Assembly (NCBI GenBank): GCA_046482545.1
Contig: JAWOEX010000011.1
Coordinates: 1 to 43,142 of the forward strand
DNA from: Candidatus Thorarchaeota archaeon
GTDB taxonomy: Archaea; Asgardarchaeota; Thorarchaeia; Thorarchaeales; Thorarchaeaceae
Length of the DNA stretch: 43,142 nt
Direction of reading: 5' to 3'
The translations under genes were made by a program, and so were the position numbers. Of the stretch, positions 4,091 through 7,495 are shown in pieces. The notes under the pieces were generated by a model that saw only the letters and a program-made list of their open reading frames with translations, was not told the origin of the DNA and searched no databases. How positions within the stretch are numbered: the first letter of the stretch is position 1; each line of letters begins with the position of its first letter.

Positions 4091-4705
4091 CTATTTTTCT
4101 TTCTTCATGCTGCTTCGCAAGTATTCTTCGTACGTGGATTCGAACTCTTTTTCCTCTGCGGGTTTGATGTCTGGTTTTCTGACAGAACCTAAATCAACGG
4201 CATAACCTCCTAGTACATACACGCCTCCCCCAAGAACCACTAAGAAAAGCAGTGTGCTCCAGTTGAAGAGTTCATCCAGGTGATCAGCACTCAGTTGTTG
4301 TGACAGTTCGTACAACAGGGGGTCTTCTCCCGTTGGGCTCCCATCTTGATAGTGCATCGATGTCAAATTGACTTGATACAAGCCACCAGTAACCTGAAAG
4401 ATGCCAATTTCATTCATGCTCCCTGTTTCAACATGCTCCGGCTGGATGACGAATTCTCTGTGTACTACCTGTCCACTTTCATTGAAGAACCTAACATGAA
4501 CTGACACCGATTCGTCGGTGAGGAGCATGCCTCTTGCGAAAAAGATGATGTCATTCGTATAGCCTGCTCCCGAGTATACTGAGAAGTGATATGTTCGATC
4601 CATTCCTGTGTCTACTTGAATCACATTAGGGCCATGATGCTGTGCAAGACGGCCCAAATAGCCAAACAGAATTTGCATCTGTATCGCTTTGTGCTTTTCC
4701 CACAA
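4091..4705 (-). CDS. Hypothetical protein with a C-terminal TM helix (start uncertain, possibly 5'-truncated)
   Basis: 204-aa ORF with a beta-rich central region, TM LLFLVVLGGGVYVLGGY and a charged tail. No clear signal peptide. Confidence 0.5.
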   Translation of the reverse strand: MWEKHKAIQMQILFGYLGRLAQHHGPNVIQVDTGMDRTYHFSVYSGAGYTNDIIFFARGMLLTDESVSVHVRFFNESGQVVHREFVIQPEHVETGSMNEIGIFQVTGGLYQVNLTSMHYQDGSPTGEDPLLYELSQQLSADHLDELFNWSTLLFLVVLGGGVYVLGGYAVDLGSVRKPDIKPAEEKEFESTYEEYLRSSMKKEK

Positions 4706-4760: not shown

Positions 4761-4802
4761 AAATATATAAGAAGGAAAAACAAAATTTACCCGAGGGAGG
4801 TG
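4761..4802 (+). promoter_or_regulatory. TATA-like box and Shine-Dalgarno upstream of the 4808 gene
   Basis: AAATATATAA at 4761-4770; GGAGGTG at 4796-4802, 5 nt before TTG 4808. Confidence 0.55.
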
Positions 4803-4807
4803 TCCTA

Positions 4808-5749
4808 TTGAGACAACAAATGCTGAAATTGGGAGCTGCATTGCTAACCATAATGATCCTATCAACTACAATGTTTGGGATTCTAATGATAAGCAATAGC
4901 GGCTTAGTGAGGTTGAACAATAGTCATGATGTAGTTTCATCGAGTACCAAACGGACATCTGAATACAAGAAAGAGTCCGGTGTTGTACTTGAAATCGGAG
5001 AAATAACGCTGACTGTATGCGTCGTAGAACTTGGTCGTCATGTGCTTATGATATTTGAAGATGATAAGCAGAAATCAGTCCTTGAGTACATAGTCGCGAA
5101 AGAGGACAAAGGATATGACACCAGCATCTTTCTGAATGGAAGGTTGCTTCATCAACGCACTTTCGATAATAATATACTTGAACCCGTGTCAATTGCTGAT
5201 TCAGATGGGGTAAAACAAACCGCTTCAGAAGAAGGTAGCTCGCGTCTCTCGCCCAAATATACTTACAAGTGGTGGGACGGCGTAAAACAGGTGACCGGTC
5301 CAGATTGGCAAATCAAGTATCACCATCCCGCTCGGGATTACTATCAGATTGCTCCGTGGAATGATTGGTCGAAAGAGGGGTGGAATATAATCCACATCCA
5401 AGTAAATCACGACCAATCTGACTTTCTGGCTACAGCTGGATGGGCTGCAATATTCGCAGCAGCTGCCGCAGCTGTTACTGGTGGATACGGCGCCATTGGC
5501 GCAGCATTTCTTGGGTCTTTACTGTCGGACTATTTCGGAGCACTTACGGGATTATTGCTAAAGGATGAAGAGGGATGTATCTGGTTTTGGTGGAGTATTG
5601 AATTTGTCGAGTGGTTTAATGCAAATGCGTGGTGGTTAGTCACCAATCCCCTTGGATGGGGTGCGACAATAGGAGCTCTCTTTGCAATTGGTTATTTGCG
5701 AATATCAAGTAGAACACTTGTCGATGCATACGGTTTCGGAAGTCCGTGA
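4808..5749 (+). CDS. Secreted pre-pro-protein with a Trp-rich C-terminal domain containing a Gly/Ala hydrophobic hairpin (candidate archaeocin/membrane-active toxin precursor)
   Basis: Signal/anchor (MRQQMLKLGAALLTIMILSTTMFGIL), polar beta-rich pro-region, linker ending SSRLSPK, then about 163 aa with 14 Trp and FLATAGWAAIFAAAAAAVTGGYGAIGAAFLGSLL. The CDS is well supported (SD present); the function is inferred. Confidence 0.6.
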   Translation: MRQQMLKLGAALLTIMILSTTMFGILMISNSGLVRLNNSHDVVSSSTKRTSEYKKESGVVLEIGEITLTVCVVELGRHVLMIFEDDKQKSVLEYIVAKEDKGYDTSIFLNGRLLHQRTFDNNILEPVSIADSDGVKQTASEEGSSRLSPKYTYKWWDGVKQVTGPDWQIKYHHPARDYYQIAPWNDWSKEGWNIIHIQVNHDQSDFLATAGWAAIFAAAAAAVTGGYGAIGAAFLGSLLSDYFGALTGLLLKDEEGCIWFWWSIEFVEWFNANAWWLVTNPLGWGATIGALFAIGYLRISSRTLVDAYGFGSP

Positions 5750-5801
5750 AATATGTGTGATATGCGTCTTTGAGAGAGTGTCAAATGGAGTGTAGATACT
5801 A

Positions 5802-6194
5802 ATGCATGCTTCAAGGAAGACATACAATATTGCTGGCATCATTCTGACATTAATCGGTTTGGCGATTCAGATATGGGCAATCATGCTGAAAACCTACCCT
5901 AGTGTACGTGTTTCGGATTTGGCAGTCATTGGTTTCATCCTCATTACTGGGGGAACAGCTTACCTCATCGACGCGAATGTTGACCAGCTCTTCTCCATTC
6001 ATAGCAGGATTAACTATGTAATCTCACTGATTGGGCTTGCAGGTCTAATCATATCGTGGAGATTCTATGGACCAATTAATGACCTAGTGTACCCACATAC
6101 AATTGCTGTAGCCGTCTTGATGATTAATTGTTTCTGGATTTTCCTGCTTGGACCAGTGGCTGGGGTCCGCCACACGAAATTAGGCAAAGAATGA
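5802..6194 (+). CDS. Small 4-TM membrane protein (candidate immunity protein)
   Basis: 130 aa, four hydrophobic helices, basic termini, 52 bp downstream of and co-oriented with the 4808 gene. Confidence 0.6.
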   Translation: MHASRKTYNIAGIILTLIGLAIQIWAIMLKTYPSVRVSDLAVIGFILITGGTAYLIDANVDQLFSIHSRINYVISLIGLAGLIISWRFYGPINDLVYPHTIAVAVLMINCFWIFLLGPVAGVRHTKLGKE

Positions 6195-6322
6195 TGTGAG
6201 ACTCAGTGTCATATGGTGTGATATGCCGGAATGGTCGCCATAATGGTCATCATAGGCGGCTAATACATCAAGGGTAGCATGTTATAGTACAAAAGTTGGA
6301 AGAACTCTGGGCTTCTTGAAGC

Positions 6323-7495
6323 CTAGAGTTCTGTTTCCAGATATTCTTCTATCTGTCGTCTACTGTGCTCCTCGCTCAGCTCGGTCTCTTTACTTTGAAT
6401 GACTTGCCTTTCAAGTCGGTTGAGGGCTAGGCTGAATGCTTCTTCAGGGCTCCATCCTTCAGCTGTGCCGTAGTATGGTCCGCGTGAAGTTCTGAATTGA
6501 AGCCGGCAGTGGATGAGCTGATCGCCTTTAGATATGGCACCGTATTTTTTCATGTATACAAAGAGATTGCCTAGGCCCAGAGCTTCTTGGTATCTACGTA
6601 CAAATGAATCAAACTGGTTCCTCATTGCCGCTTGTTCCTCCTCAGTCATGCGTATGCCTGGTTTGACTGAGAACTGAATCTGCATTGGGGGTCGTTTCTC
6701 GCCTGCTTGAGAAATTGGTTCAAGGAAGTCTTTCTTTGTCACCATTCCTGTGACTTTTTCATCTTCGATGACGACAAGACTTGAGATATCGTGGTCTCGC
6801 ATCTTCTGAGCCGCTTCCTGAAGCGGCTCATCAGGCCTAGCTGCGTAAACAGGTACTGACATCACGGATCTGATTTCCATATTTCGCAGGGGTTGCTTGT
6901 CACCTGCTCTGTCTCCGCGAGTTGACCGGTCGTCAGCGTGGTAAACAATGTCCATGATATCCTGAATGCTCACGACTCCCTCGAGATTTCCTCTTTCTAC
7001 AACCGGGGCATGAGAAAAGCCCTGCATTCTGAAAAGGCTGAGCACTTGCGATATTGTTTCATCCGGAGAAACGGTGAATGGGTCAGCGGTCATAACCGTC
7101 TGGACTTCTCTTTGTCCCCATTCGCTTCCAGCAGCAGCATCAATCACGTCTTCATAAGAAATCACGCCAACGATTCTCTCGCCAGCATAGACTGGAAGCT
7201 GGAGGACTTGATTCTCAAGCATCAGCCTTGCAGCTTCGCTTACAGAGTCATGAATTCGTAAGTATGGGGCAGGTTGCTTCAGTTTCTTGATTTTGGTCGA
7301 TGTGGGGTCCAGCTTTGATCTTCTGATTCGCCTTCTGGTCAACACACCACTTATTTCGCCATCATCGTTCTCAACAATCACGACAGGCGGTTCACTATTC
7401 TCTAAGATCGGTAATGCTTTGGAAATGGGCTCATTTTCATTCATTGACTCGAATCCTTTCGAGTATACATCCTTAACCTTCGCTTCGACCATCAC
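6323..7495 (-). CDS. 4xCBS-domain protein with a C-terminal HPF/RaiA-like domain (candidate Hib-type ribosome hibernation factor)
   Basis: Four CBS repeats (GEISGVLTRRR, RIVGVISYED, NLEGVVSIQD, KVTGMVTKKD), then a beta-alpha-beta-beta-beta-alpha-like segment ending YYGTAEGWSPEEAFSLALNRLERQV. Confidence 0.8.
   Translation of the reverse strand: MMVEAKVKDVYSKGFESMNENEPISKALPILENSEPPVVIVENDDGEISGVLTRRRIRRSKLDPTSTKIKKLKQPAPYLRIHDSVSEAARLMLENQVLQLPVYAGERIVGVISYEDVIDAAAGSEWGQREVQTVMTADPFTVSPDETISQVLSLFRMQGFSHAPVVERGNLEGVVSIQDIMDIVYHADDRSTRGDRAGDKQPLRNMEIRSVMSVPVYAARPDEPLQEAAQKMRDHDISSLVVIEDEKVTGMVTKKDFLEPISQAGEKRPPMQIQFSVKPGIRMTEEEQAAMRNQFDSFVRRYQEALGLGNLFVYMKKYGAISKGDQLIHCRLQFRTSRGPYYGTAEGWSPEEAFSLALNRLERQVIQSKETELSEEHSRRQIEEYLETEL

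Follow-up and report, generated by a model that had tools for sequence, protein, structure and literature searches.

What does a predicted exported, tryptophan-rich protein encoded next to a small membrane protein do in an Asgard archaeon? The question is raised by a two-gene cassette in a 43,142-nucleotide (nt) stretch of a 'Candidatus Thorarchaeota' archaeon genome (contig JAWOEX010000011.1; hereafter the window), which a first-pass annotation, made from the letters of the sequence, had put forward as a candidate membrane-active toxin accompanied by its immunity gene. Its guess that the host was probably an Asgard archaeon agrees with the taxonomy, the genome having its GTDB family in common with a 'Candidatus Thorarchaeota' metagenome-assembled genome (MAG). 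Gene 1 (4808..5749, + strand) starts with TTG and encodes 313 amino acids (aa); gene 2 (5802..6194, + strand), which lies 52 nt 3' of gene 1, starts with ATG and encodes 130 aa. Both are open reading frame (ORF) calls, and they are co-directional in the ORF list of the window.

We find that the two genes are a real, undescribed two-gene family, and that the C-terminal ~165-aa module of the gene 1 protein is an undescribed archaeal family. Our favoured reading is that the pair may consist of a secreted membrane-active toxin and a polytopic immunity protein, acquired by insertion, and we give it about an even chance of being right.

A conserved gene pair outside the named families

The cassette described in the first-pass annotation proved real: the ORFs were confirmed, the motifs quoted for gene 1 (...SSRLSPK, the Gly/Ala-rich hydrophobic stretch and DEEGCIWFWW) are all present, and its 14 C-terminal Trp residues are all the Trp residues of the protein (14/14 in residues 151-313, 0 in 1-150). 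The pair is also conserved beyond the window, is more than a chance neighbourhood and is kept as a pair. A word-indexed search yielded eight full-length relatives of gene 1 with 40-53% identity, and an exhaustive search of representative sequences yielded 148 homologues. Since most of the latter align only to residues ~150-313, the C-terminal part of gene 1 is a mobile module (residues 151-313; 5258..5746, + strand). Named loci with this module come from Thorarchaeota, Bathyarchaeia, Methanoculleus and other Methanomicrobiales, and Thermoproteota MAGs.

The absence of a named family, which had been suspected from the start, was borne out in Pfam, NCBIfam, PHROGs and PADLOC, where no family fits gene 1 and none fits gene 2. 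The sole Pfam row for gene 1 (hmmscan, E up to 1) is Phage_holin_2_4 (PF16082; 17.7 bits, E 0.0034, residues 217-251), with a score below the 30-bit gathering cut-off. Matches to the Pfam glycine-zipper families PF13441, PF13488 and PF05433 also stay below the gathering cut-off, the best of them reaching 23.1 versus 28.9 bits in homologue P0020, and gene 1 of the window gives no row for any of the three. No relatives were found among IMG/VR viral contigs or PLSDB plasmids.

Domain organisation of gene 1 and its homologues

The N-terminal 30 residues of gene 1 (4808..4897, + strand) consist of a basic n-region and a hydrophobic helix, the hydropathy segment spanning residues 10-28, and are predicted to form a Sec signal peptide or a signal anchor; homologues bear clear signal peptides with AxA-type sites. 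The region that follows had been described as a polar pro-region, a description that residues 58-125 (4979..5182, + strand) contradict. These form a conserved, predicted beta-rich domain, not a variable pro-peptide, with a mean pairwise identity of 45% in the clade versus 23% for the polar spacer of residues 31-57, and with six predicted strands at a predicted local distance difference test score (pLDDT) of ~60-73 in a shallow, 9-sequence full-length model. Many distant homologues can be aligned from ~residue 56-60 on, and this N-domain is absent from many others. Thus, of the expected combination of a conserved C-terminal domain and a variable pro-domain, the former was found, in that the module is the conserved unit, and the latter was replaced by a domain that is conserved where it occurs.

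The module is composed of beta-hairpins, a long glycine-zipper helix region, a DEEGC-IWxWW strand, short helices and a C-terminal hairpin ending in G-x-G-x-P. It begins near ...SSRLSPK, the point at which module-only homologues start after their signal peptide. In an alignment of 86 modules, W156, Y171 and D253 are invariant (86/86 for D253), and D157, H173, Y179, G191, H196, Q198, E254 (82/86), W259, W261, Y296 and P313 are at least 90% conserved. We also considered DEEGC as a catalytic-cysteine site, which is unlikely, Cys257 being kept in only 74/86 modules.

Between the hairpins and the DEEGC segment lies the Gly/Ala-rich, hydrophobic glycine-zipper region (residues 206-252; 5423..5563, + strand). 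With the motif scored as (G/A/S)xxxGxxxG or GxxxGxxx(G/S/T) in a hydrophobic helix, a definition taken from PMC12744356, a zipper is found in 79/86 modules, with a median of 3 overlapping motifs, and the hydrophobic stretch carries a median of 1 charged residue per ~50 residues over the 86 modules. Within the clade, the beta region (69%) and the DEEGC segment (66%) are the best conserved parts of the module and the zipper (44%) the least.

Among homologues, the module is found in three arrangements: right after the signal peptide, after the beta-rich N-domain, or after an N-terminal domain of four transmembrane (TM) helices, termed 4-TM domain, and a signal-peptide-like fifth helix. Where the chain continues beyond the terminal G-x-G-x-P, a poly-G or poly-P linker leads to a dockerin, PKD, InlB-B-repeat, CARDB, F5/8-C-like or Hint domain, or to a separate C-terminal TM anchor (P0059). 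Because proteins that carry a dockerin or are TM-anchored need no further attachment device, the module would be functional cargo and not an anchor, and these architectures point to its being displayed or released outside the cell as cargo. In P0135 (~96-285), poly-Gly precedes a genuine Hint domain with Cys as its first residue, an architecture that points to autoprocessing of the Hedgehog type, by which the module would be set free. In many homologues of the P0035/P0061/P0103 type, GGGG-C-P-(T/I)-L-(F/S)-V-W-N-G opens a domain of ~150 aa; two members of this type have DUF6861 Pfam matches, not mapped onto the ~150-aa domain.

A confidently predicted fold

The AlphaFold2 (AF2) model of the module, calculated from the 86-sequence alignment, reached a pLDDT of 90.7 and a predicted TM-score (pTM) of 0.84. 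The full-length gene 1 model from the 9-sequence alignment was unusable (pLDDT 46), and the interpretation of the module is based on the 86-sequence model alone. In this model, two beta-hairpins are followed by a ~40-residue helical zipper region, the CIWFWW strand, three short helices and a terminal hairpin, and the zipper helix would be buried in, or wrapped by, the alpha+beta domain.

The fold was compared with pore-formers and with structures in general, and the resemblance to pore-formers that the first-pass annotation would have led us to expect was not seen. A Foldseek search of the Protein Data Bank (PDB) with the module model gave no credible match (best E 1.6), an exhaustive VIA-align comparison gave a best Z of 2.9, which is below noise (unmatched models usually give 7-8), and an ESM Atlas shape search gave no match (TM <=0.36). 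The top, weak VIA-align rows are hot-dog-fold thioesterases and dehydratases, in which a sheet surrounds a long helix, and we take them as a topology hint and nothing beyond. Nothing credible emerged from a PDB sequence-profile search either, where SlyB appeared at E 0.59 and an Rhs1 TM segment at E 5.1. Leads from an ESM Atlas feature search all scored <0.9 and were set aside, including one cluster with Bacteriocin_BacA on 13% of its members, which at 0.83 was too weak. Co-folding of the module with gene 2 gave a prediction score of 0.00, which is evidence in neither direction. The module fold is thus confidently predicted, and matches nothing in the libraries searched.

Four-helix membrane partners

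The first-pass description of gene 2 as a four-helix membrane protein stands. The protein has four hydrophobic helices; with a strict hydropathy threshold, 3 of them are recognised in the window copy and all 4 in most homologues. Its termini are basic, its loops carry the conserved motifs Q-T-H-P-S-V and Y-P-R/H-T, and its topology is probably N-in/C-in. A gene 2 hidden Markov model (HMM) matches the gene directly 3' of gene 1 in all Thor-type loci examined, and in several pairs the stop of gene 1 overlaps the start of gene 2 by 4 nt (ATGA). Gene 2 occurs as tandem duplicates in three loci (L019, L012, L029) and as a fused duplicate in another (L001).

A consistently linked small multi-TM gene had been proposed as a check on the pair, and a linked 4-TM gene is indeed found in every locus with sufficient flank, be it downstream, upstream or fused. 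In Methanomicrobiales (L027), a different 4-TM gene, of 129-144 aa, lies downstream and overlaps the gene 1 stop. Bathyarchaeia-type loci (L024, L029) have one or two 4-TM genes of 114-126 aa upstream of the module gene, and these genes share homology (E 3e-12 to 5e-8) with the 4-TM domain at the N-terminus of the fused proteins. An hhalign comparison of the gene 2 alignment with these fused N-terminal domains gave a probability of 32%, homology thus not being established, and the gene 2 HMM scored the Bathyarchaeia- and Methanomicrobia-type partners at E 0.015 or worse. In the fused forms, a basic loop, a hydrophobic helix and an AxA-like site separate the 4-TM domain from the module, a layout with which signal peptidase could split the single chain. 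In six fused proteins (P0020, P0034, P0043, P0051, P0056, P0057), a Pro-rich linker leads to a conserved C-terminal motif, GGSRTC(M/L/I)(A/P)(R/L) or GGGGxxKYGPF(L/V)(L/V); these motifs look like a sorting or modification signal.

Insertion, patchy distribution and decay

The patchy distribution anticipated for a gene pair of this kind was found, and the module is accessory: it is present in 15/301 genomes of the phylum, in 9/76 of the family to which the genome studied here belongs and in 0/2 congeners. Genomes that have it often hold two diverged pairs, and the genome studied here is one of them, with a second, diverged pair, 39% identical, at C26:257888-259080. In this contig 26 paralogue (L006:1290-1400), the signal peptide MKCNQLKK... 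is in another frame, with a T10 run before the gene body; the frame break could reflect an error in sequencing or a pseudogene, or the tract could be slippery or phase-variable. Gene 2 of the contig 26 pair overlaps the stop of its gene 1 by ATGA.

Both congeners have a four-CBS-domain gene, a 252-aa membrane gene and a penicillin amidase gene, without the cassette. The 252-aa gene, which encodes a two-plus-one-TM protein, occurs once in congener G002 and as tandem copies in G001. Its counterpart in the window is the 5'-truncated gene at the left edge of the cassette (4091..4705, - strand), whose 204-aa product aligns to residues 68-252 of the congener protein with 52% identity; the loss of the first 67 residues, and with them of both N-terminal TM helices, coincides exactly with the edge of the cassette. 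This protein family has no Pfam match. The right edge is formed by the four-CBS-domain gene (6323..7495, - strand), convergent and downstream of gene 2, which is 89-90% identical in the congeners; its CBS domains are matched by Pfam at E 1.4e-46, and its C-terminal region is without Pfam match. By blastn, DNA homology to the congeners stops at 4285 and resumes at 6322. Because the flanks are shared, homology is interrupted between 4285 and 6322 and the neighbouring gene is truncated at the edge, we conclude that, compared with both congeners, the window carries the cassette as an insertion. The insert, of ~1.6 kb, holds no further element genes. At other loci (L001, L003, L027), transposase or TnpB genes adjoin the homologues.

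Gene 1 is also lost repeatedly. It is a pseudogene or frameshifted at four sites (G006, G013:C45, L025, L028). Gene 2 is present in 17/81 genomes of the family, and in ~10 of these an intact gene 2 has no module within 3 kb by a filter-free six-frame HMM search. In four independent loci (G031, G032, G034, G021), remnants of the 3' part of gene 1 abut gene 2. One such locus, L039 (G021:C1:760600-766000), has an orphan gene 2 with an in-frame C-terminal gene 1 remnant at 1946-2756, and, as judged by eye from the ORFs, this gene 2 appears to lie beside a PIN-domain / ribbon-helix-helix toxin-antitoxin-like pair in a variable region. In two related loci, L001 (8141-9612) and L019 (6311-7782), two further genes come after the cassette. 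One product is Peptidase_C39_2-like (174 aa), and the other (313 aa) has a weak winged-helix match of the Sso10a-like kind; they might take part in the system, for instance in processing, and both are absent from the window.

Control signals and repeats

A TATA-like box, AAATATATAA (4763..4772, + strand), read from the sequence, lies ~36 nt 5' of the gene 1 start, and a Shine-Dalgarno-like GGAGGTG (4797..4803, + strand), also read from the sequence, lies 4 nt ahead of the TTG. The first-pass annotation had credited the cassette with its own promoter and ribosome-binding site; the matching sequences are present, as consensus resemblances and no more, the sigma-70/terminator scan being bacterial and not applicable to an archaeon. 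TATA, Shine-Dalgarno sequence and start are arranged likewise in the paralogous cassette of the same genome, and the TTG-AGA start of gene 1 is seen again in homologues.

A repeat search revealed an 11-nt direct repeat, GTGTGATATGC, with two 100% identical copies (5755..5765 and 6216..6226, + strand) that lie a few bases past the stop codons of gene 1 and gene 2, respectively. Both copies are embedded in similar GTGTCA(A/T)ATGG surroundings, and the repeat could be a terminator, a processing signal or a vestige of cassette duplication. The same search detected a 15-nt inverted repeat that can be drawn as a hairpin (6301..6332, no strand assigned) between gene 2 and the convergent CBS-domain gene.

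Comparison with known systems

Overall, the cassette appears to work most like a glycine-zipper toxin with a polytopic immunity protein, while being a member of no known family. In bacteria, glycine-zipper toxins depolarise membranes and are neutralised by polytopic membrane proteins 'in almost all cases', and their immunity genes also occur as orphans (PMC12744356). Like EsxX-ExiCD, TelE, TspA-TsaI and Tse4 (PMC12744356), gene 1 encodes a predicted exported protein whose hydrophobic stretch carries an extended GxxxG zipper, and, as in those systems, the adjoining gene is multi-spanning, duplicated, and orphaned in genomes without gene 1. Unlike the bacterial toxins, to which it has no sequence or fold relation, the archaeal family has a Sec-type signal peptide and archaeal hosts, and places the zipper within a Trp-rich alpha+beta domain of ~165 aa. 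Pfam and NCBIfam searches gave no LXG, Rhs or PAAR domain of the kind used for T7SS or T6SS delivery and no homology to the toxin domains of EsxX, TelE, TspA or Tse5.

Halocin C8 offers an archaeal parallel, its precursor ProC8 containing both the HalI immunity protein and the HalC8 toxin (bioRxiv 10.64898/2026.07.27.741052), so that immunity and toxin share a single chain as 4-TM domain and module do in the fused homologues. Halocins C8 and H4 are likewise secreted archaeal antagonists made from signal-bearing precursors, and in halocin H4, which was compared by description only, a transmembrane-like region is required for killing. The putative immunity protein here is a 4-TM protein, unlike that of C8, which is a soluble N-terminal fragment, and gene 1 has no match to the Pfam halocin models (Hac8_like_N / halocin C8; hmmscan, E up to 1).

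Pore-forming colicins also combine a water-soluble domain that hides a hydrophobic helical element with an adjacent small immunity gene of 3-4 TM helices. Their pore domain is an all-alpha ten-helix bundle, unlike the predicted alpha+beta module, and there is no Pfam colicin match and no colicin among the Foldseek and VIA-align rows listed, where absence is no exclusion. The Rick_17kDa_Anti / SlyB, Gly-zipper_YMGG and Gly-zipper_Omp families have the same short motif and give weak profile matches on the hydrophobic region; these matches are below cut-off and span ~30-35 residues, and the glycine-zipper 2TM lipoproteins differ in being bacterial outer-membrane lipoproteins without a Trp-rich domain. 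In polymorphic toxin systems, finally, a conserved N-terminal trafficking region is joined to a hypervariable C-terminal toxin domain, immunity is encoded downstream, and orphan toxin-immunity cassettes are displaced (Zhang et al. 2012, PMC3482391). Compared with these, the picture is mixed: a downstream immunity-like gene and units made of a 3' remnant and gene 2 are present, but the conserved part is the module.

Weighing a toxin and immunity pair against other readings

In the mechanism that we favour, gene 1 would be exported via its N-terminal signal sequence, and its module would form a compact alpha+beta domain wrapping a very hydrophobic glycine-zipper helix region. The zipper would insert into the membrane of the target cell and oligomerise there, and ion gradients would be lost, as with the bacterial glycine-zipper toxins. 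The 4-TM protein encoded by gene 2, with conserved outward-facing loops, would reside in the membrane of the producer and block insertion or assembly, thereby conferring immunity. We infer the toxicity, membrane insertion, immunity role and target range of the pair from the features described above. The exported zipper cargo, the cognate membrane partner, the tight coupling, the patchy, multi-copy distribution of insertion type, and the loss of cargo with the partner kept and duplicated together make up the pattern of conflict genes, and it is because of this pattern and of the precedent of zipper toxins (PMC12744356) that the reading as a membrane-active toxin with its immunity protein is rated as it is.

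Several points weigh against it. It is drawn from comparative genomics, and neither the PDB profile search nor the fold searches revealed a known toxin with related sequence or matching fold. The zipper of the window protein is degenerate, with 1 canonical motif plus a small-xxx-small pattern and an Ala-rich first half, and conserved residues such as D253, E254, H173, H196, Q198 and Y171 would be more typical of a binding or active site than of a simple pore-former. Homology among the three 4-TM partner classes could not be demonstrated. Unlike in polymorphic toxins, it is the module itself that is conserved, N-terminal to variable extensions, the variable parts being N- or C-terminal of it. 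In genus g6, moreover, orphan gene 2 lies in a conserved core neighbourhood (aldolase-FBPase-ADH), a stable context that also fits an independent housekeeping role of gene 2.

The same g6 context could be accommodated by a non-toxic surface system, which we regard as unlikely. The module would then serve outside the cell, as ligand or display domain, and dock on its cognate 4-TM protein in adhesion, kin recognition, signalling or cell-cell contact, with the C-terminal dockerin, PKD and CBM-like domains mediating attachment. Strictly 1:1, translationally coupled partners, the existence of fused single-chain forms, the adhesion-type domains fused to the module and the conserved external loops of gene 2 would all be consistent with such a role. 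However, a dockerin or separate TM anchor makes a second anchor redundant, suggesting that the module is cargo; repeated loss of gene 1 with gene 2 kept, and insertion near transposases, better fit conflict genes; and a stretch of ~45 nearly uncharged residues forming the glycine zipper would be left unexplained. The conserved polar residues bear on another reading, that of an enzymatic toxin with its immunity protein, which seems to us less likely still. Here the module would act on envelope lipids or glycans, the Asp-Glu pair and the His, Tyr and Trp residues forming the active site and the hydrophobic helix serving as membrane tether. The conservation of D253 and E254, H173, H196, Q198, Y171, W156, W259 and W261, the higher identity of the beta region and DEEGC segment relative to the zipper, and the hot-dog-fold enzymes at the head of the weak structural rows all point in its direction; against this, the structural Z values (<=2.9) are below the noise of the tool, no enzyme family was found by Pfam, NCBIfam or PDB profile search, and Cys257 is not invariant (74/86).

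A membrane function belonging to an integrated mobile element is in our view highly improbable; the pair would then be a lysis protein of the holin kind and its inhibitor, or would serve superinfection exclusion. This reading would take its cue from the weak Phage_holin_2_4 match (E 0.003, 17.7 bits) and from the transposase neighbours at some loci, yet the holin score is far under 30 bits, PHROG matches number 0, IMG/VR and plasmid relatives were not found, the 1.6-kb insert contains no other element genes, and a signal peptide with a large extracellular domain is unlike holins. What probability remains belongs to something else.

The reading as a toxin with its immunity protein can be extended to the whole family, and we hold this broader form to be possible, at rather less than an even chance. 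The family would then comprise secreted, membrane-inserting toxins, spread across the archaea and so far undescribed, whose new alpha+beta fold would form a sheath around their own zipper helix. They would be countered by at least three sequence-unrelated classes of 4-TM immunity protein, including single-chain precursors split by an internal signal peptide, and no earlier antagonism system based on protein toxins would have been defined in Asgard archaea.

Significance for archaeal antagonism and recognition

To our knowledge, almost nothing has been established on antagonism and recognition among Asgard, Bathyarchaeia and methanogen lineages, and the archaeal protein toxins that we know of are essentially halocins and sulfolobicins. 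The family described here is a concrete candidate, with a compact module of confidently predicted, unmatched fold and a cognate membrane partner, and natural controls are at hand in the two diverged pairs of one genome, the orphan partners and the fused forms. If the module is toxic, the logic of glycine-zipper toxin and polytopic immunity would be extended from bacteria to archaea, and the family would provide a new membrane-insertion fold as well as markers with which to map antagonism in sediment communities. If it is non-toxic, the two genes would still encode a new surface ligand and its receptor, in the prokaryotes most closely related to eukaryotes.

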